Counted from the stretch's first letter, positions 49,430 through 62,573 are shown. The stretch is DNA of 64,000 bases from Spirochaetales bacterium (GCA_037142615.1 JBAXAI010000012.1:34066-98065), one strand, 5' to 3'. Notes: generated by a model from the letters alone, not told the origin. Made by a program: numbers and translations.

Positions 49430-52264
49430 ATGCCAGTAGTTCCCTTTTCCCTCAAAGAAGCACCGGCGTTGATCGAAACGCTGTTCCCGGCCCAGAAGTT
49501 GTCGATCGAAGCGTACAAGGAACAGATGGCGGGCAGCGGCAAGACCTTGACCGCTTTGGGAAGCTACTGGAAGGGCCGCAAGCCGCTCATCTTGAACCGT
49601 GCCTGTGTCTTGGGCTGCCTGCTGCCGGTGACTGCCAACCCCATCCGGGACCTCGAGATTTTCGAGAAGCTAATGGCCATGGACGAAACCGCGCTAACTC
49701 ACCGTCTCAAGGCCAAGAACGACAAGAAGAGTCGCTCTCTTATTTCCAGCTATCAACATAAGGTCGATGCCGCCTGTCGCCCCGAGGAGTGCGACAACAC
49801 TTTGTACGACGGGATTTGGCCCGAGGTAAACGCTCACTTGGGCACCGAAGCGACGAGCTTTCCCGAGTTGGTGGAACAGCTGGGAATCATGCGCTTTGGC
49901 CACCGTCCCCGGTTTGCCGACGTGTTTTCGGGCAGCGGGCAGATTCCCTTCGAGGCCGCCCGGCTGGGCTGCGACGTGTACGCCAGCGACCTGAACCCCG
50001 TGGCCTGCATGCTTACTTGGGGCTCGTTTCATTTGGTGGGTGCCCAGCCCGAGGAGCGGCAAGAGATTGCAGTGGCGCAGGCACGGTTGGTGCAGAAGGT
50101 GCAGTCCGAAGTCGATGCCTTGGGCATCGAGAACGACGGCAAGGGATGGCGGGCTAAGGCCTTTCTGTATTGCGTCGAGGTAAGGTGCCCCCAGACAGGC
50201 TGGATGGTGCCGCTGATTCCCAGTTTGATTGTCAGCCAGCCACGTACGGGCGAGGTGCGCAACAACGTGGTGGTTCAGCTGGTTCCCCTGCCCGCCGAAA
50301 AGCGCTACCGCATTGATGTGGTTTCGTTCGCCACTGAAGCCCAACTGGCTCAAGCCGAACTCGGCACCGTACAGGGCGGCGAGATGGTGCATTCGCCCGA
50401 CGGTACCAAGGTGTACCGCACCAAGATCAGCACCTTGCGGGGGGATTACGCCGAGGGCGGCGAAACCAAGAACAGGCTGCGAATGTGGGAAAAGCATGAC
50501 TTTGTAGCTCGGCCCCACGACCTATACCAAGAGCGACTGTACTGTGTGCAGTGGCTTCGCACCAAAGCCGCTGGCCGGGGGCAGGAGTACGAGTTCCGGT
50601 CGGTGACTCCCGACGACCTGACGCGCGAGAAAACAGTGATCGACTTTGTGGGATCACGGCTGGCCGAATGGCAGGCCAAGGGTTGGGTCCCCGACATGGT
50701 GATCGAGGCCGGGGCCAAGACCGACGAGCCGATTCGCACCCGGGGCTGGACTCACTGGCACCACCTGTTCAACCCGAGGCAGTTGCTGGTGGCGGGGTTG
50801 GTGCGGCAAAACATCAACTCCACCACGGCGTTCGGACTGTCGCAGGTGATCAACTGGAACAGCCGGTTGTGTCGATGGAATATGGGCAGCGGTGGCGGTG
50901 GCAGTATCCAGGACGTATTCTACAATCAGGCTCTCAATACTCTTTTCAACTACGGTTGTCGTAACACAGCTCTGGCCCTTACCCAGGTCGACCTCGGTGC
51001 CAGGAGCTTTCCTTTCGCCAAAGGAGTGAAGGCTGAAGTGAAGACTCACGCGGCCAACGCCATCACCGCGCCCACCGATCTGTTCATCACCGACCCGCCG
51101 TACGGCGACGCCGTCAAGTACGAAGAAATCCTCGAGTTCTTCATCGCCTGGCTGCGCAAGAACCCGCCTGCCGAGTTCAAAGGTTGGGTGTGGGACAGCC
51201 GCCGGGTGATGGCCATCAAGGGTGAAGACGACAAGTTCCGGCAGGCCATGATCGACGCGTATTCGGCCATTACGCGTTGTATGCCCGACAACGGTATGCA
51301 GGTCATCATGTTCACCCACCAGTCGGGCAGCATTTGGGCCGACATGGCGCACATCGTGTGGGCGGCGGGGCTGCAGGTCACGGCGGCGTAGTACGTGGTC
51401 ACCGAAACCGACAGCGCCTTGCGCGGCAGCAACAACGTCAAAGGAACAGTGCTTCTGGTACTCCGCAAACGACAGGGTGAACACAAAAGCAGCCGCAGCG
51501 ACTTGGGGTGGGAACTGCAAGAAGAAGTCGACCGGCAAGTGCAGACTCTGACCGGTCTGAACCAGAGCGCGAAGACTCTGTACCGAGACGAAAACTTGTT
51601 CAGCGACGCCGACCTACAGATGGCGGGCTACGCGGCGGCGCTGCGAGTGCTTACCCGGTACACATTCATCGACGGCAAAGACATGCGTATCGAGGCCGGG
51701 CGCCCCAAACAGAAGGGCAAGAAGGACTTTGTCGAGCAGCTGATCGACTTTGCCGTCGAGACCGCCAACGGGGCTTTGGTCCCCTTGGGGCTGGAACGTT
51801 CCGTGTGGGAAAAGCTTACCCCCGGCGAGCGGTTCTACCTCAAGATGATCGACCTCGAGTCGCAAGGGGCCAAGTCGCTCGACAACTACCAAAACTTCGC
51901 CAAAGCGTTCAAGGTGCCTGACTACCGGCTGTACCTGGCCGAAGACCGGGCCAACCATGCCCGCCTTAAGTCAGGCGCCGATTTTGGACGCAGCGAAATG
52001 TCCGACTCTTCCGAACTGGCGGGCACCCGGCTCCGGGGCTTGCTGTATGGCTTGATGGAACTGGGCCAAGGCGTCGAGTCCGACGATGTGCTGGGTCACC
52101 TGAGTCTGAACGTGAAGAACTACTTCAACTGCCGTTTGGAACTTGTCGAAATCGCCGACTTCTTGGCCGCCAAGCTGGAGCACCTGGACGCCGACCAGGC
52201 CAGCCACGCACGCGTGCTGCGCGACCTGGTACGCCACCAGAAACTCGGCGCCTGGGAAAACTGA
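49430..52264 (+). pseudogene. DUF1156 amino-methyltransferase interrupted by an in-frame TAG
   Basis: FSGSGQIP and TDPPY motifs; TAG at 51389-51391 in VTAA*YVVTETD; same frame continues to 52264. Confidence 0.85.
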
Positions 52265-55123: not shown

Positions 55124-55248
55124 CTCCTCGGCCGAGATCGGGGCTTTGGCTAAGCCGAGGGAGAAGCGAGGACCGCAGGCGTACTGGAAGTACGTCGAGG
55201 ACCGGAGCCGCCCTAGGCGACGCCAAAGACCCGAGATCGGCCGAGGAG
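55124..55248. repeat. 125-bp imperfect palindrome (family B, copy 2)
   Basis: Arms CTCCTCGGCCGA..TCGGGGCTTTGGC / GCCAAAGACCCGA..TCGGCCGAGGAG. Confidence 0.85.
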
Positions 55249-55249
55249 G

Positions 55250-55886
55250 GCACGAGCCCATCGAGCACCGCCACATCGACTGCGAAGAAAGCTACACCGG
55301 CATCGTCACCGAAAAGCTGAGCATGCGCAAATGCCGCATGACCAACATGGTCAACCACGGCAGCGGTCGCGTGCGCCTGGAGTTTTCGGCCCCCAGCCGC
55401 TCGCTCATCGGTTACCGCGACGAGTTCCTCACCGATACCAAAGGCACCGGCCTGATGAACAGCTACCTCGCCGGCTACGAACCCTACCGCGGCGAAATCC
55501 CGAGCCGTAACAACGGCTCTTTGGTGTGCGACCGCCAGGGCGAAGCCGTGGCCTACGGCATTTTCCACCTCGAACCCCGCGGCCGCATTTTCGTGGTGCC
55601 CGGCGACAAGGTGTACGAAGGCATGATCGTCGGCGAACACAACCGCGACCTCGACCTCGACATCAACGTGTGCAAGGAAAAGAAACTCAGCAACATGCGC
55701 TCCGCCGGCAAAGACGACAACATTTTGCTCACGCCCGTGAAGCCCATGACGCTAGAGGCCAGCCTGAACTTTTTGCGCGACGACGAGTGGCTGGAAGTGA
55801 CCCCGAAGAATTTGCGGTTGCGGAAGCAATACCTGGGGATTGCGGATCGGAAGCAACACAGTAAGAAACTCAACGACGGGGTGTAG
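55250..55886 (+). pseudogene. typA: 5'-truncated second copy of typA (3' 637 bp)
   Basis: Gap-free direct repeat of 43371-44007 at offset 11879; differences are mostly synonymous. Confidence 0.95.
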
Positions 55887-56084: not shown

Positions 56085-58616
56085 ATGGCGAATGAAGCCG
56101 CTGCCCGCCTCAAGATCAATCACTTGCTCACCACCGCCGGCTGGAGGCTCCTCGACGAAGGCGACCTGCGCGCCAACGTGCATGTCGAGGCCAAGAGCGA
56201 CGCAGGGTTTGCAGACTACCTGCTGTTCGACTCGCAAGGCTTCCCGCTCGCGGTCATCGAGGCCAAGGCGCCTGCCAAGAACCCGTTGGTGGGCAAGGAA
56301 CAGGCGCGCGGCTATGCCAAAGATCACCATGTGCGGTTTGTGTTCTTGTGCAATGGTGAGGAATCGTATTTGTGGGACGTGGCGACCGGCGATCCCGAGC
56401 CGCTGACCCACTGGCCCAGCCCTGAAGCGCTTGAGGCCAAGGCTCGAGTGCAAGCAACCGGAAAGTCGGCCTTCGTCGATCCGTATCGGGCCCGGGGACT
56501 CCTGGCGTCCGAAGCCGTGGCCGACGACTACATTGCCCGTACCCAGGACAGCCACTACGACGAGCACGCCAGTTGGAAGAACTCCGCGTTGCGGCCCGGG
56601 TACATCGCAGAGCTCAAACTCAGGTTTCTTAGGCCGTACCAAGTCGAGGCCCTCGCCGCCATCCAAGCCGCAGTGGGTCAGGGCCGAAGCCGGTTCCTAC
56701 TCGAAATGGCCACTGGCACCGGCAAGACTCTCACCAGCGCTGCCCTCATCAAGCTGTTCTTGCGCACCGGGGCCGCACATCGCGTGCTGTTCCTGGTGGA
56801 TCGGCTGGAGTTGGAAGACCAGGCGCAGAAGGCTTTCGTCGCTCAATTGGCCCGCGACTACCGAAGTGTCATCTACAAGCAGCACCGAGGTGACTGGCGA
56901 CAGGCACATATCGTCGTCACAACCGTGCAGTCGCTGATGGCTTCGGACCGGTACAAGGAAGAGTTCAGCCCTAGTGACTTCGGGTTGGTGATCAGCGACG
57001 AGGCGCACCGGTCGATCTCGGGGCAGGCCCGCGACGTGTTCGAATACTTCCGGGGGTACAAGTTGGGGCTCACCGCGACCCCACGCGACTTGCTTCGTGG
57101 TATTTGGGCCAAAGAGACCGGCATCAGCGAGTTCGAGCTCGAGAAGCGCGTGCTGTTCGATACCTACCGTGTCTTCGGCTGCGAGTCGGGGGTGCCCACC
57201 TACCGCTTTGGGCTGCTCGATGGCGTCAAGGGCGGCTACCTGGTCAACCCCACCGTGCTTGATTGCCGCACCGACAAGACCACGCAATTGCTGTCGGAGC
57301 AGGGCTTGGCTTTTGAGGCCAAGGATGAGGACGGCAATGATGTCGCCGAGACCTTCGGCAAACGCGACTTCGAGCGCACGTACTTCAGCCCCGAGACCAA
57401 CCAGTCGTTCGTGGCCACGTTCTTGGACCACGCGCTCACCGACCCCATCACCCACGAGCTGGGCAAGAGCCTGATCTTCTGCGTCAGCCAGAGTCACGCG
57501 GCCAAGATCACCAACCTGCTCAACCAGGAAGCCAGCCGCCGTTGGCCGGGGCGCTACCAGTCCGACTTTGCCCTGCAAGTGACCAGCAGCGTGGCCGACG
57601 CCCAAGCCATGACCGTGCGCTTCAGTGAGAACACGCTCGGTGGCAAGACCAAGATGGTGAACGACTACACGTCGAGCCGGGTGCGTATCTGCGTTACGGT
57701 GGGAATGATGACCACCGGCTACGACTGCGCCGACCTGCTCAACGTGGTGCTGATGCGGCCCGTTTTCAGCCCGTCAGAGTTCATCCAAATGAAGGGGCGG
57801 GGAACCCGGCTGCATACCTATGAGTGGACCGAACCCAAGACCCGCCAGCGCTTTGCGCACAAGAAAACCGGCTTCCATCTGTTCGACTTTTTCGCCAACT
57901 ACGAGTTTTTCGAGGCGGAGTACGACTACGACGCCGTCAAACCGGTGCCGCTCAGCCGCGCCGAGCTGGGGGTGCACGACGACAAGTTCGAGGTACCCAA
58001 GCCGCTGGGTTCGGTGATCGACGACAGCCCCGATGCGCTCAAGGCCACCAACTGGATCACCATCGGTGTCGACGGCATGAAGATCGACCGCCTGTTCTGG
58101 CAGGACTTCAGCACGCAAGTGACCGACGACGCCGACATTGCGGATGCGGCCGCCCGCGACGACTGGGACCGCGTAAGCAGCTACATCCACGAGCGTTTGC
58201 TCGGCGGCGAGGGCGGTGCGAGTCCCATTGCCGAAACCGACACCAGCGACCGAGGGCGCAGTCTCGACGTGATCCGCACCCTTTTGGCTCGCCGCGATGG
58301 TCCGGCCCTTGAGGCCCTATTCGCCAAGCTGTTTGGTCGCTCCATCCAGCTGCCCACCAAGCAGGACCTGCTCACCCAGGCCTTCGAGCGGTTTGCCCGC
58401 ATGCATCCGCCCCGGCCCGAAGCCCTCGACGACGTGAGGTTCTTCTTTTTCAGCTACGTGGGCGAGCCTCGCATCCGGGCGCTCATCGATGAGGGCCGTC
58501 TGGCCGAGCTCAACAGTACCGCGCTGACCCCCGACCGCCTCAAGCGCGTGCCTGACTGGCGGGGAATCGTGAAAGCTCTGCAGACCGAGGTGGATTGGGA
58601 TAGGTTCGGAGCGTGA
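56085..58616 (+). CDS. hsdR: Type I restriction enzyme R subunit
   Basis: ADYLL..VIEAK, RPYQ, MATGTGKT, DEAHRS, TAT, MTTGYD, QMKGRGTR; TGcTATAAC at 56057. Confidence 0.9.
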   Translation: MANEAAARLKINHLLTTAGWRLLDEGDLRANVHVEAKSDAGFADYLLFDSQGFPLAVIEAKAPAKNPLVGKEQARGYAKDHHVRFVFLCNGEESYLWDVATGDPEPLTHWPSPEALEAKARVQATGKSAFVDPYRARGLLASEAVADDYIARTQDSHYDEHASWKNSALRPGYIAELKLRFLRPYQVEALAAIQAAVGQGRSRFLLEMATGTGKTLTSAALIKLFLRTGAAHRVLFLVDRLELEDQAQKAFVAQLARDYRSVIYKQHRGDWRQAHIVVTTVQSLMASDRYKEEFSPSDFGLVISDEAHRSISGQARDVFEYFRGYKLGLTATPRDLLRGIWAKETGISEFELEKRVLFDTYRVFGCESGVPTYRFGLLDGVKGGYLVNPTVLDCRTDKTTQLLSEQGLAFEAKDEDGNDVAETFGKRDFERTYFSPETNQSFVATFLDHALTDPITHELGKSLIFCVSQSHAAKITNLLNQEASRRWPGRYQSDFALQVTSSVADAQAMTVRFSENTLGGKTKMVNDYTSSRVRICVTVGMMTTGYDCADLLNVVLMRPVFSPSEFIQMKGRGTRLHTYEWTEPKTRQRFAHKKTGFHLFDFFANYEFFEAEYDYDAVKPVPLSRAELGVHDDKFEVPKPLGSVIDDSPDALKATNWITIGVDGMKIDRLFWQDFSTQVTDDADIADAAARDDWDRVSSYIHERLLGGEGGASPIAETDTSDRGRSLDVIRTLLARRDGPALEALFAKLFGRSIQLPTKQDLLTQAFERFARMHPPRPEALDDVRFFFFSYVGEPRIRALIDEGRLAELNSTALTPDRLKRVPDWRGIVKALQTEVDWDRFGA

Positions 58617-58624
58617 CGACCGTC

Positions 58625-58719
58625 TTGACTTACATGTCACGTGGGATTAGTCTGAATCTATCTTCCCCGTAGGCATTGCGTTCTGCGGGCCCCCAGGGTT
58701 TAGCTCTGGGTTTTTTTTT
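58625..58719 (+). ncRNA. Promoter plus ~60-nt two-hairpin leader RNA ending in a terminator, upstream of the NYN gene
   Basis: TTGACT-17-TAGTCT; hairpin 58666-58689; hairpin 58692-58710 followed by T9. Confidence 0.62.
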
Positions 58720-58733
58720 GCCCGAAGGATGCC

Positions 58734-59342
58734 ATGAAACGAGTCGCCGCGTTTGTCGATGGGTTCAATCTCTACCATGCCCTTGAAAATCTGGATTCTC
58801 CGAAGGTGAAGTGGCTCGACCTTCAGGGCCTTGTCCGCTCGGTACTGAAATCAGATGAAAAGCTGGTCTCAACGTTGTATTTCACGGCGTACGCGACTTG
58901 GGATGACGAAAAGGCAGCGCGGCATAAGAAGTACATTCGAGCCCTTGAACTGACGGGTGTACAAGTGATACTCGGCAAGTTCAAACGAAGGAATCGCACC
59001 TGTCGCGAGTGTGGTGCCCGAGCCGTCGACCACGAGGAAAAACGGACCGATGTCAACATTGCGACCCACCTGCTTCGAGGTGCCTTTCTGAACGAGTTCG
59101 ACCTCGCCATTGTCGTCTCCGGTGACACCGACCTGATTCCTGCCATCGACGCGGTGAAAGAACTGTTCCCAGCCAAGCGAGTGGGCATCTTGTTCCCTAT
59201 GAACCGCCATACCACCGAGATGGAGCAGAGCGCCGACTTCAGCGAGTCCGTGAAGCTGCCAGCGCTCCTGGCCAACCGTCTGCCCGACCAGATCCGCCTT
59301 CCGAGCGGAAAGTACCTTACGCCGCCCACCGAGTGGCAATAG
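58734..59342 (+). CDS. NYN/LabA (PIN-like) domain RNase
   Basis: FVDGFNLYH, EEKRTDVNIA, VSGDTDLIPA. Confidence 0.9.
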   Translation: MKRVAAFVDGFNLYHALENLDSPKVKWLDLQGLVRSVLKSDEKLVSTLYFTAYATWDDEKAARHKKYIRALELTGVQVILGKFKRRNRTCRECGARAVDHEEKRTDVNIATHLLRGAFLNEFDLAIVVSGDTDLIPAIDAVKELFPAKRVGILFPMNRHTTEMEQSADFSESVKLPALLANRLPDQIRLPSGKYLTPPTEWQ

Positions 59343-59352
59343 CGAGTCTTCC

Positions 59353-61821
59353 ATGCTCAACGCCGACACGAAACGACGCATCAACGCCTGCCGCGACATT
59401 CTGGTGGGCAAGGTGACCGACCCCAAGGCGCAGGTGGAGCAGATCACCATCGCGCTGATGTACAAGTTCATGAACGACATGGACCACGAGGTGCGCGACC
59501 TGGGCGGGGCGTCGTCGTTCTTCGCCGGCGAGTTTGCCACCTACAGCTGGGACCGCATCACCGACCCGCGGCTGGGCGGCGAGGAGCGCCTGCGCCTGTA
59601 CGCCGAGGGCATCGAGGCCGTGGTGAAAAACCCGGGCGTGCCCGAGCTGTTCCGCCAGATCTTCCGCAACGCGTACTTGCCCTACCGCGACCCTGAGACG
59701 TTCAACCTGTTCAGCCAGGAGATTTCGGGCTTTCGGTACGAGCACAGCGAAGACCTGGGCGACGCCTTTGAGTACCTACTCAGCGTGATGCAGAGCCAGG
59801 GCGACGCCGGCCAGTTCCGCACCCCGCGCCACATCATCGACTTCATGGTCGAGGTGGTGAAGCCCCAGCCCGGCGAGGCCATCCTCGACCCGGCCTGCGG
59901 CACGGCCGGGTTCCTCATCAGCGCGTACAAGCACATCGTGAAGCATCACCAACTGACCCCCGCACAGACCGAAGACCTGCACCGCAACGTGGAAGGCTAC
60001 GACATCAGCCCCGACATGGTTCGCCTAAGCCGTGTGAACCTGTACCTGCACCAGTTCGCCGACCCCCGCGTGGTGGAATACGACACCCTGACCAGCGAGG
60101 ACCGCTGGGGCCGCCGCTTCGACGTCATTCTGGCCAACCCGCCGTTCATGACGCCCAAGGGAGGCATCCGCCCGCACCGCAAGTTCAGCCTGGAGTCGAA
60201 CCGCAGCGAGGTGCTGTTTGTCGACTACATTGCCGAGCATCTGATGGCCGGGGGGCGGGCCGCCGTCATCGTGCCCGAAGGCATCATCTTCCAGTCGGGC
60301 AAGGCCTACCAACAGCTGCGCCGCATGCTGGTCGAAAGCAGCCTGTGGGCCGTGGTCAGCCTGCCCGCCGGAGTGTTCAACCCGTACAGCGGCGTCAAGA
60401 CGAGCATTCTGTTCCTGGACCGGGGAATCGCCGAAAAGGGAGCCCCGGTGCTGTTTGCCCAGGTGAAGGCCGACGGCTACGACCTGGGTGCCCAACGCCG
60501 CGCCGTGGCCGCCAACGACCTGCCCGCCGCGCTGGCCTTGCTGAACGACGCCCACACCCGCCTGAGCCGGGGAGAGGTTCCCGCCGACTTTCGCGACAGC
60601 CTGACTGACCACGCCCTGACTCACCTGTTTGTGCCCCGCGCCGTGCTGGCCGAAGGCGATGCCAACCTGAGCGGCGAACGCTACCGAGTCGCCGCCGCCA
60701 CCGGACCGAAGAAGTGGCCGATGGTGAAGCTGGGGGAGGTGTGTGACCTGCTTTCCGGACAACACATCGATACCGAGAAGTACAACTCGGAGGGTGTCGG
60801 TACTCCCTACCTTACTGGACCTGCGGACTTCGGGCCGACATACCCTCTCGTCTCGAAGTGGACCACCGAACCGAAAGTTCTGGCGAATGCGGGAGATATC
60901 CTAATCACGGTAAAGGGTTCTGGGGTTGGGAAGGTGAACCGGCTGAATCTCGATGCCACCTGCATAAGCCGACAGCTGATGGCAATTCGCCCACGGGAGA
61001 TCGAGGTTGGATTTCTATATGCACTGCTCCAGACGAAGTTCGAACATTTCCAGCTTGAGGGCGAGGGTGCTGCGATTCCGGGCCTTACTCGAGATGATGT
61101 GCTGTCACTCGAAATCCCTCTCCCCCCGCTCTCGGTGCAGCAGCAGATCGTGGCCGAAGTGGCCCGGTACCAGGCCGTGATCGACGGGGCACGACAGGTA
61201 GTGGACCACTGGAAGCCGAGCTTCGCCGTGGAACCCGAGTGGCCGGTGGTGAAGTTGGGGGAGGTGGCCATTAGGATCACCAAGGGCACCACGCCCACGA
61301 CTATGGGCTTCAAGTACCATGAATCCGGTGTTGCATTCGTGAAGATCGAAGCTCTATCCGAAACTGGGGAAATCGACAGGAAGAAGCTCTCGTTCGTCGG
61401 GACAGATTGCCACGAGGCATTTTCCAGGAGTCAACTTGCCACCGGCGATGTTCTTTTTTCCATCGCCGGGACAGAAATGGGTATCACCGCGATTGTCACC
61501 GAGGAGATTATTCCCGCCAATACGAATCAGGCCTTGGCTATCATCCGACTTGGGACCTTGTGTATGCCTCGTTACGCCTTGAACTTCCTTCGTTCACCGC
61601 GCCTAAAGTCCCAAATCGAAGGTCTGAAAACAGGTGTGGCCCAATTCAACCTATCACTTGCCCAGGTTTCAGAGTTGGAAATTCCCCTCCCTCCCCTCGA
61701 AGTCCAGCAACAAATCGTGCAACGCATCGAGGCCGAGCGCGAGCTGGTAGAAGCCAACAAGCGGCTGATCGAGCTGATGAAGGCCCGGATCGACGAGACC
61801 ATGGCGAGGGTGTGGGGATGA
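59353..61821 (+). CDS. hsdM: Fused type I methyltransferase-specificity subunit (HsdM-HsdS)
   Basis: [21 protein letters not shown]; two TRDs bounded by WPxVKLGEV and EIPLPPL. Confidence 0.9.
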
Positions 61822-62573
61822 TCGTCGACAACCGCGACGCGGTGGACCTCAGAGAGCTCCTTGAGGAGTACGGCGATCCCCATGACCTGGAAATCCTTCT
61901 GAAGAACGCCGGGGTCCAGCTTCCGTTCGGCGTCGGCACCTCGAAGCTTGGACTTGCGAACTATTTCCTTGAACGCCTGAACCGGGGAACGGTCGATGTC
62001 TTCCTGCTAGAATTCCTGTACCTCTGTGAGCAACGAGCGGGAGCTCGCATCGCGCGGACAGACTGGGATGTTCGTGACCATCATCGACAATTGCTTGACC
62101 TTTGCATCGCCCTCAGCACGAGGCTGACGGACGGCATGGCGCCGCGTGAACTTCACTCAGCCGAACGAAAACCCTTTACGGCTCGGTCTACGCTCCGTGA
62201 GCTGATCTCGACTGCCGAGACCGAGGTGTTTCTCGTCGACAACTACGTCGATCTAGCCACGCTGGACATTTTTCGCGAGTGTCACCATCCAATCAAACTA
62301 TTGACGGGACCAACCCCTAGAAACATACCCGAGAGTCTACGTGGCTCGATGAAGAGTTTCCGAGATGAGGGATTTCGTATTGAAGTCCGGACTTGTTCTG
62401 ACCTTCATGACCGGATTCTGTTTTTCAACGAAAAGGCCTGGCTATTGGGCTCCAGCATCAAGCACGCAGGGGTGAAGCAGCTCAACATGATCCAATTTGA
62501 GGCTCCCGAGATCGTCGAAAGTGTCATGAAAGAGGCCACCGAGAAATGGAACCTCGCGCAGGTTTGGGAATAG
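61818..62573 (+). CDS. Hypothetical protein with C-terminal PLD-like domain
   Basis: LVDNY, LHDRILF....WLLGSSIK; ATG overlaps the upstream stop. Confidence 0.65.
   Translation: MIVDNRDAVDLRELLEEYGDPHDLEILLKNAGVQLPFGVGTSKLGLANYFLERLNRGTVDVFLLEFLYLCEQRAGARIARTDWDVRDHHRQLLDLCIALSTRLTDGMAPRELHSAERKPFTARSTLRELISTAETEVFLVDNYVDLATLDIFRECHHPIKLLTGPTPRNIPESLRGSMKSFRDEGFRIEVRTCSDLHDRILFFNEKAWLLGSSIKHAGVKQLNMIQFEAPEIVESVMKEATEKWNLAQVWE

Follow-up and report, generated by a model that had tools for sequence, protein, structure and literature searches.

The PrrC anticodon nuclease lies within the EcoprrI type I restriction-modification (RM) locus and is held by the RM proteins, and the rnc, rne and pnp leaders of E. 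coli are autoregulated by their own RNase product. For toxin-antitoxin (TA) systems of type III the article text gives as criteria a promoter, an RNA, a terminator and a toxin, with the terminator setting the RNA-to-toxin ratio, and defines the antitoxins as tandem arrays that are processed by the toxin (PMC3401426). Three related toxin families are known, all with repeat-array antitoxins. In ToxIN, as the article presents it, the RNA is processed by the toxin that it inhibits, and a phage escaped by way of an acquired pseudo-antitoxin (PMC5086642). Two described groups of NYN proteins have to be considered as well. One is HEC-09 (PADLOC PDLC04163), one of nine candidates found embedded in Hma systems (Payne et al., bioRxiv 10.1101/2024.01.29.577857). 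A representative, cloned with an inducible promoter and ca. 150 bp of its own upstream sequence, did not protect against the coliphages used; the article text reports no toxicity and treats HEC-09 as a single protein, with no mention of an RNA partner, makes no use of the word 'terminator' and speaks of promoters in connection with cloning (10.1101/2024.01.29.577857). The other is the CRISPR-associated NYN protein of Bacteroides fragilis, described as a Mn-dependent, sequence-nonspecific ssRNA nuclease that trims crRNA intermediates (Chi and White, 10.1101/2024.04.08.588522).

The locus that we have analyzed belongs to a Spirochaetales bacterium and is contained in a stretch of 64,000 nucleotides (GCA_037142615.1 JBAXAI010000012.1:34066-98065), here called the window, from whose first letter all positions are counted. 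As the first-pass annotation had proposed, a NYN gene lies within a type I RM operon, and Pfam, PADLOC and NCBIfam all bear this out. All features of the operon are on the plus strand. Its upstream flank is an EcoAI-like hsdR gene for the restriction subunit (56085–58616; Pfam ResIII, HSDR_N and Helicase_C), which matches PADLOC REase_I with an E-value of 1.2e-68 and NCBIfam restrict_EcoAI under the cut-off of that model. The downstream flank is a fused hsdM-hsdS gene of 822 aa (59353–61821), with Pfam N6_Mtase at residues 132–387 and Methylase_S, or, in PADLOC, MTase_I at residues 3–446 and Specificity_I at 454–810. The spacer between hsdR and the NYN ORF measures 117 nt, and 10 nt separate the NYN stop codon from hsdM-hsdS. 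Just upstream of the RM operon PADLOC detects a DUF1156-methylase and PLD-helicase system, i.e., the window is a defence island.

The segment from 58617 to 59352 (promoter, small RNA, terminator and NYN gene) is a lower-GC insertion between hsdR and the fused hsdM-hsdS. GC content is 52–58% across the spacer and the NYN gene and 62–66% in both flanks. The C-terminal 404 residues of HsdR were searched in 401 genomes of the same class and homologues were found in eight of them, the window's own counted. In five of the seven other loci (L172–L175 and L178) hsdM starts ca. 0–30 nt from the projected end of hsdR with no NYN gene between them; of the other two, one stops at a contig edge and one was not placed in either class. 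Strong matches to the HEC-09 model are rare among relatives (2/61 related genomes, this genome included). In sample X2, from a near-identical strain, hsdR, leader, NYN gene and hsdM are contiguous on a single contig of 2,389 nt, and among the DNA contigs of four runs over positions 57000–61000 none joins across the cassette. The segment is best explained as a mobile, self-contained cassette that has come to lie between hsdR and hsdMS.

The NYN gene (58734–59342) codes for a protein of 202 aa, a predicted metal-dependent RNase of the HEC-09 family. That it has the NYN fold, as first supposed, is agreed by Pfam (NYN, PF01936, 51.1 bits, the cut-off being 24.2, residues 3–157), by PADLOC (HEC-09, E 8.1e-63, residues 1–202 on model positions 1–203 of 203), by an AlphaFold2 model built from a 34-sequence alignment (pLDDT 95.4) and by Foldseek, whose best hit was the LabA-like protein 2qip (E 1.8e-9), followed by the MARF1 NYN domains 5yaa and 6fdl. 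A profile search of the PDB sequences with the alignment of the NYN protein gave no match at E ≤ 0.01. Residues D9, D106, D131 and D133 are invariant in the 34 sequences, and their equivalence to the catalytic aspartates of MARF1 follows the description in Payne et al. (bioRxiv 10.1101/2024.01.29.577857). Only the NYN and HEC-09 models match the protein, which has no other Pfam domain and does not belong to the ToxN, CptN or TenpN families. It shares with HEC-09 the full-length match, the NYN/MARF1-like fold and the embedding in a multi-gene defence operon; it differs in that HEC-09 appears in that article as a protein without RNA and without defence activity (10.1101/2024.01.29.577857). The earlier statement that NYN systems of this kind had not been characterised has to be qualified, the family having already been named HEC-09 and screened without effect, as far as the article describes.

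Between hsdR and the NYN gene we found the promoter, RNA, terminator and nuclease gene in the order in which the first-pass annotation had read them. The putative sigma-70-type promoter (58625–58653) consists of TTGACT (58625–58630), a spacer of 17 nt and TAGTCT (58648–58653). The hexamers and their spacing are as described at first, but they are not near-consensus: they agree with it at 5/6 and 3/6 positions (8/12), and the promoter scan did not call them. The -10 hexamer ends 5 nt ahead of the start of the RNA model, which is the geometry of the family described below. The predicted NYN-associated small RNA of ca. 60 nt (58659–58719, with the 5' start placed from the position of the -10) has two hairpins and is matched by our covariance model R1 with 39.1 bits at 58659–58718, the only copy that the R1 search found in the 4.27-Mb genome. 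Its order is a 5' tail of the AUCUUCCCC type, hairpin P1, a C-rich junction, hairpin P2 and a U-run. P1 (58666–58689) has 8 bp, two of them G-U, and a loop of 8 nt. P2 (58692–58719) has 8 bp, a loop of 3 nt and nine U, the stem extending from 58692 to 58710 and the T9 from 58711 to 58719, 14 nt before the ATG at 58734; it is both an intrinsic terminator, the top site in the terminator scan, and part of the conserved RNA. Both hairpins lie where they had first been placed, and the alternative pairing then suggested, of CGGGC (58686) with GCCCG (58720), is present in the minimum-free-energy fold. The leader fold has a z of -2.43, with 3/200 shuffles equally stable. There is no space for a second promoter in the path from promoter, RNA and terminator to the ATG. 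Tandem Repeats Finder over 58300–59400 gave no rows, the RNA of the window being a single unit.

This arrangement resembles that of ToxIN, CptIN, TenpIN and AbiQ as they are described, i.e., a constitutive-type promoter, a structured ncRNA, an intrinsic terminator and an RNase gene a few nt further on. At the window locus the terminator precedes the nuclease gene and the promoter stands at the RNA start; there is no tandem array, and the nuclease is not of the ToxN/CptN/TenpN families. Moreover, the fold is NYN/PIN-like and not ToxN-like, one two-hairpin unit is the usual state here, whereas type III antitoxins are described as arrays of 34–40-nt repeats forming pseudoknots, and one NYN clade has its RNA divergent from the gene. 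With a different fold and no repeat array in the window, the NYN-RNA pair is not a member of the type III TA systems as defined. The likeness to the B. fragilis protein, as that article presents it, lies in a defence locus that combines a bacterial NYN enzyme with a small, defined and structured RNA, although that enzyme serves a type III CRISPR system and the window locus has no CRISPR genes or repeats.

We have surveyed the leaders of 160 homologue loci (80 on genome contigs and 80 on metagenome contigs) from a protein family that numbers 1,733 members at E ≤ 1e-10, the surveyed proteins being 37–49% identical to that of the window. The first-pass reading depended on the leader being conserved, and a covarying motif is indeed present: R1 matches it at E ≤ 0.05 in 117 loci, a minimum for the 160 surveyed. 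In the 1.1 Mb scanned on both strands, all R1 matches with E ≤ 0.3 adjoin a NYN gene, and the only others had E-values of 0.9–0.98. The shared design is a -35/-10 promoter, ca. 5 nt, a AUCAUCCC-like tail, a variable P1, GGCCCC, P2, a U-run and the start codon. The RNA model ends 14 nt (median) ahead of the start codon, and no more than 40 nt ahead of it in 89/93 loci. Promoters reach at least 9/12 in 83 of 95 homologues (control windows, 27/491), and in 57 of the 95 the -10 ends 4–6 nt before the start of the RNA model. The invariant positions are those of the single-stranded tail (AUCAUCCC), the junction (GGCCCC) and the base of P2, and between fixed flanks both the sequence of P1 and the length of its loop vary greatly. 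The 43 remaining loci were classed by eye, the opposite-strand group also by fold analysis: two have no upstream DNA, 31 carry variants of the same design and 10 have elements on the opposite strand, with two hairpins and a U-run. An alphaproteobacterial and a Treponema form are among the 31 variants.

Covariation in support of the predicted leader structure is strong. A MAFFT alignment of 63 leaders gave a consensus fold of two hairpins with compensatory changes in 12/13 pairs. In this alignment 83.7% of the cells pair, compared to 61.8 ± 1.2 after shuffling, the double-change cells number 210 against 66.3 ± 7.5, and sliding the partners by 1–3 columns lowers pairing to 29–55%. All six modelled pairs of P1 have compensatory changes among the homologues and the pairs of P2 also covary. 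In the alignment of 97 matches made with R1, which is biased towards the structure of the model, 91.1% of the cells pair (64.8% shuffled). The leader is one copy of a conserved, predicted small-RNA family that travels with the NYN family. This RNA family extends over more than 20 phylum-level groups, with NYN as its sole constant genetic partner. It is uncatalogued, being absent from Rfam 15: over the window the best hit was only anti-hemB (17.1 bits, gathering score 49.5), and over the motif in eight canonical homologue loci it was only Hrs13 (19.6 bits, against 52). A literature search confined to article texts found no description of this NYN-linked RNA.

These data bear on one account of the leader, in which the hairpin and T9 are a plain terminator of hsdR and the promoter-like hexamers arose by chance. 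The hairpin does lie 75 nt past the hsdR stop codon and will stop hsdR transcripts, and a promoter of just 8/12 would suit a chance origin. However, the element accompanies NYN genes in unrelated contexts, and the hsdR-hsdM pairs of relatives lack such a spacer. Furthermore, in the 150 nt that precede the NYN start, a terminator-like hairpin was found at 100 of 149 places (148 homologue loci and the window), compared to only 10 of the 491 remaining ORFs of 200 aa or more in these loci. The conservation data contradict this account, to which we give hardly any credence.

A second possibility concerns the proteins that surround the gene. The NYN locus is like PrrC/EcoprrI in having an RNase gene between genes of a type I RM system, and the protein could be a PrrC-like back-up nuclease restrained by the neighboring RM proteins, the leader having no specific part. 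Its position between hsdR and hsdMS speaks for this, and so do the Hma systems in which the family was seen embedded, according to the article (10.1101/2024.01.29.577857), and a few single loci in which the neighbour is a type III methylase, a type III restriction enzyme, HmaB or an HmaA-like helicase. For the 56 homologue loci in which both flanks extend for 2.5 kb or more, we scanned the longest ORF of either flank. No neighbour Pfam family occurred in more than 3/56 loci, most neighbours being housekeeping enzymes, and each PADLOC family was found in at most 1/56 loci upstream and 1/56 downstream. The PrrC-like RM link that had been put forward fails as a general rule, and the association is local. 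Besides, the protein consists of the NYN domain only and is of another family than PrrC, its RM association is not conserved, and its constant partner is the RNA and not any RM gene, whereas PrrC is held by RM proteins and not by RNA. Restraint by RM proteins is, in our opinion, very improbable. The module is self-contained and context-free; embedding in defence operons occurs but is not the rule. As no neighbouring protein family is conserved, NYN is left as the probable partner that reads the AUCAUCCC tail and the GGCCCC junction. The invariant single-stranded nucleotides, together with NYN being the sole partner across more than 20 phylum-level groups, lead us to infer that the NYN protein recognises the RNA.

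Several loci depart from the canonical arrangement. In L139 there are three head-to-tail RNA units, with a U-run on the last one only, and L161, L206 and L212 have two copies each; these four are the only loci with arrays of 2–3 units, and in this they resemble type III systems, which have tandem RNA units. In nine loci the RNA is upstream of the NYN gene on the opposite strand, pointing away from it. An alignment of these nine shows two hairpins with compensatory changes in 11/16 pairs, and G-U pairs outnumber A-C mismatches (13 and 3), which favours the opposite strand as the one that would carry the RNA. Promoters on this strand reach 10–11/12 in 3/9 loci, and the Bacteroidota members of the set have no match to the sigma-70 consensus. 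In a quick IQ-TREE tree, the nine proteins form one clade (SH-aLRT 99) with long internal branches. In three loci of this divergent clade the 5' boundary of the RNA, as set here, is 25–39 nt from the NYN start. Outside this set, L124 has a canonical copy of the RNA (61.7 bits) divergent from NYN with a promoter of 9/12, and in L127 and L043 the motif has no U-run and a separate terminator comes afterwards.

There are also copies that lack an intact NYN gene. One Bdellovibrionales genome has two extra copies of the RNA, each followed by only the first 13–14 codons of NYN; truncated toxin genes that keep a full RNA are described for type III systems as well (PMC3401426, PMC5086642). On predicted viral contigs the NYN family was found 53 times, with an R1 match upstream of the gene in 21 loci. 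Two phage contigs carry an orphan RNA, the NYN gene being absent from the surrounding contig sequence that was examined: that of L180 (33.8 bits) is located between the tail-terminator and major-tail genes, ahead of the tape-measure gene, and that of L187 (42.8 bits) comes after a repressor-like gene. A search of viral contigs with strict DNA patterns yielded 13 separate loci, and seven of them (L179, L182, L183, L185, L186, L189 and L190) were dismissed as chance matches, with 23 bits or less or no score at all. The two phage orphans and the NYN stubs could be deletion remnants. Taking together the arrays, the opposite-strand clade, the stubs and the phage orphans, the RNA is a gene partner and not just an hsdR terminator; by its arrays, divergent orientation and orphans it behaves as a unit of its own.

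The same loci weigh on the idea that the leader acts in cis, as an attenuator and autoregulatory site that NYN binds or cuts to set its own level. The E. coli rnc, rne and pnp leaders offer a parallel, since they too are conserved hairpin leaders before an RNase gene whose product could bind or cut them; they differ in that they are not separate genes, are not terminated before the ORF and have no divergent, array or orphan copies. In most NYN loci a terminator stands right before the ORF with no space for a second promoter, the conserved single-stranded nucleotides could be the binding or cleavage site of the protein, and the loci with RNA and NYN in tandem on the same strand are well explained in this way. 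However, in the nine-locus clade and in L124 the RNA is on the opposite strand and cannot attenuate transcription of NYN, the first two units of L139 have no U-run, and orphan copies exist without NYN. Nor did duplexes of the RNA with the translation start of NYN differ between cognate and non-cognate pairs (-18.2 kcal/mol, compared to -17.7 for non-cognate ones, p = 0.81), and the 5' tail alone gave -4.16 and -4.35 kcal/mol (p = 0.21), a comparison that is blind to invariant C-runs pairing with G-rich ribosome sites. With cognate and non-cognate duplex energies equal for the whole RNA and for the tail, locus-specific antisense or SD-sequestration was dropped. Overall we regard cis regulation as unlikely, albeit a serious contender. 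On this view the terminator would keep a dangerous nuclease at a low level and protect it from transcription that starts upstream. What moves the reading towards an RNA that would act in trans are the arrays, the phage orphans and the divergent clade.

An RNA acting in trans might also be a positive partner, i.e., a cofactor, scaffold, sensor or guide, with a ribonucleoprotein as the active entity. Co-inheritance, the conserved single-stranded nucleotides and the behaviour as a separate gene fit this explanation equally well, and the high variability of P1 between fixed flanks is in its favour. RNA class also follows protein clade on the quick IQ-TREE tree (11 label changes, 39.8 when shuffled), although kin share labels and the test shows co-inheritance only. 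Against it, no unstructured variable segment that might serve as a guide is visible, P1 being a closed hairpin, and the phage orphans are easier to understand as decoys for an RNA of the inhibitor type. We consider a positive partner distinctly unlikely.

We have ranked first the possibility that the RNA restrains the nuclease in the manner of type III systems, because the arrays, the stubs that keep their RNA and the phage orphans all have type III counterparts. By analogy with those systems, the promoter would make the RNA in excess, with most transcripts ending at the U-run and a minority reading through to encode the nuclease. The RNA would restrain NYN, and when this short-lived RNA is lost, e.g., when a phage shuts down host transcription, the nuclease would be freed. 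Transcription of the RNA, its binding to the protein, toxicity, neutralisation and a role in defence are all parts of the scheme that we infer. Some observations count against an antitoxin. The leader consists of a single RNA unit, tandem repeats being absent, and the fold is that of NYN and not of ToxN, CptN or TenpN. The published HEC-09 screen showed no defence, and the text of that article reports no toxicity (10.1101/2024.01.29.577857), and the CRISPR-associated protein is described as trimming RNA, so that NYN enzymes need not be toxins (10.1101/2024.04.08.588522). A conserved terminator right before the ORF would be equally expected of a cis attenuator, and the spacing of 25–39 nt in three divergent loci is such that antisense or promoter interference could act. 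All considered, type III-like restraint of the NYN nuclease by the RNA falls only slightly short of an even chance.

A broader proposal may be built on this restraint, namely that NYN together with its RNA constitutes a fourth family of TA or abortive-infection modules of a type III-like kind, structurally unrelated to the known three, with an NYN/PIN-like RNase as toxin and a two-hairpin RNA of ca. 60 nt as antitoxin. Horizontal transfer would have carried such modules into more than 20 phylum-level groups, where they drop into defence operons, and some phages would carry the orphan RNA as a decoy. We put this forward tentatively, with somewhat less than an even chance of being right. What was already known is the protein family, as HEC-09; to this our data add the RNA family, with its arrays, its phage orphans and its divergent clade. 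Should the leader be cis-regulatory instead, few leader motifs of nuclease genes would be expected to have so wide a distribution. If the proposal is true, a widespread RNA family, accompanying a protein family of 1,733 members at E ≤ 1e-10, would be added to the catalogue, and there would be reason to re-test HEC-09, negative in the only published screen as the article describes it, this time minding its RNA. If a two-hairpin RNA without repeats holds a NYN nuclease, the RNA-antidote solution would have arisen independently on another nuclease fold.

The predicted two-hairpin RNA usually found just 5' of the NYN gene has a second class, which was detected at nine loci (L058, L072, L074, L077, L082, L156, L163, L032 and L045), where it lies on the minus strand, upstream of the NYN start and divergent from the gene. 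The P1 loop is conserved within this class, with a sequence near GAUAGCAUC, and all nine of the corresponding NYN proteins fall in a single clade, labelled as Bacteroidota, Chlorobiota and others.

Copies of the RNA were also found next to incomplete NYN genes. The genome of a member of the Bdellovibrionales (G061) carries extra promoter and RNA copies at two loci (L169, 1501-1563, and L170, 1501-1563), in which the downstream NYN consists of the first 13-14 codons only, the point of truncation being nearly identical in both. N-terminal NYN stubs are present as well in the viral loci L240, L241 and L243. In the sequence examined from two phage contigs of IMG/VR the motif is found with no NYN gene, in one case within a tail-gene module (L180, 2538-2598, 33.8 bits in the covariance model) and in the other after a repressor-like gene (L187, 6573-6630, 42.8 bits). 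These orphan RNAs could be antitoxin-type decoys or else deletion remnants.

Regarding the restriction-modification genes, hsdM and hsdS are fused in the window into a single ORF of 822 aa (59353-61821), with the methylase at residues 3-446 and two target-recognition regions at 454-810. The end of this fusion is overlapped in a different frame by another ORF (61407-62573), whose true start is probably past 61821 and whose residues 216-378 match the PADLOC candidate PDC-S05. At the locus of a relative (L177, genome G208) hsdM starts ca. 440 nt beyond the hsdR match, a gap that may hold a further small embedded element. In the upstream defence system, the DUF1156 methylase gene (49430-52264) carries an in-frame stop (51389-51391) that divides it, and the two resulting ORFs match positions 2-651 and 654-944 of one PADLOC model of 944 positions. 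Between the two defence systems sits a fragment from the C-terminal end of a TypA/BipA GTPase, an ORF of 246 aa (55146-55886) with the domains EFG_C and BipA_C only.

When contigs of two other samples (X2 and X9) were compared with the window, a stretch of 100 nt towards the 3' end of the NYN gene (59182-59283) was found swapped for a diverged one of equal length, between flanks that are near-identical. The homologous cassette of L085 lies between a tRNA gene (1220-1292) on one side and a TPP riboswitch (2311-2411) on the other, and this region (1220-2411) is an example of the module landing in unrelated contexts.
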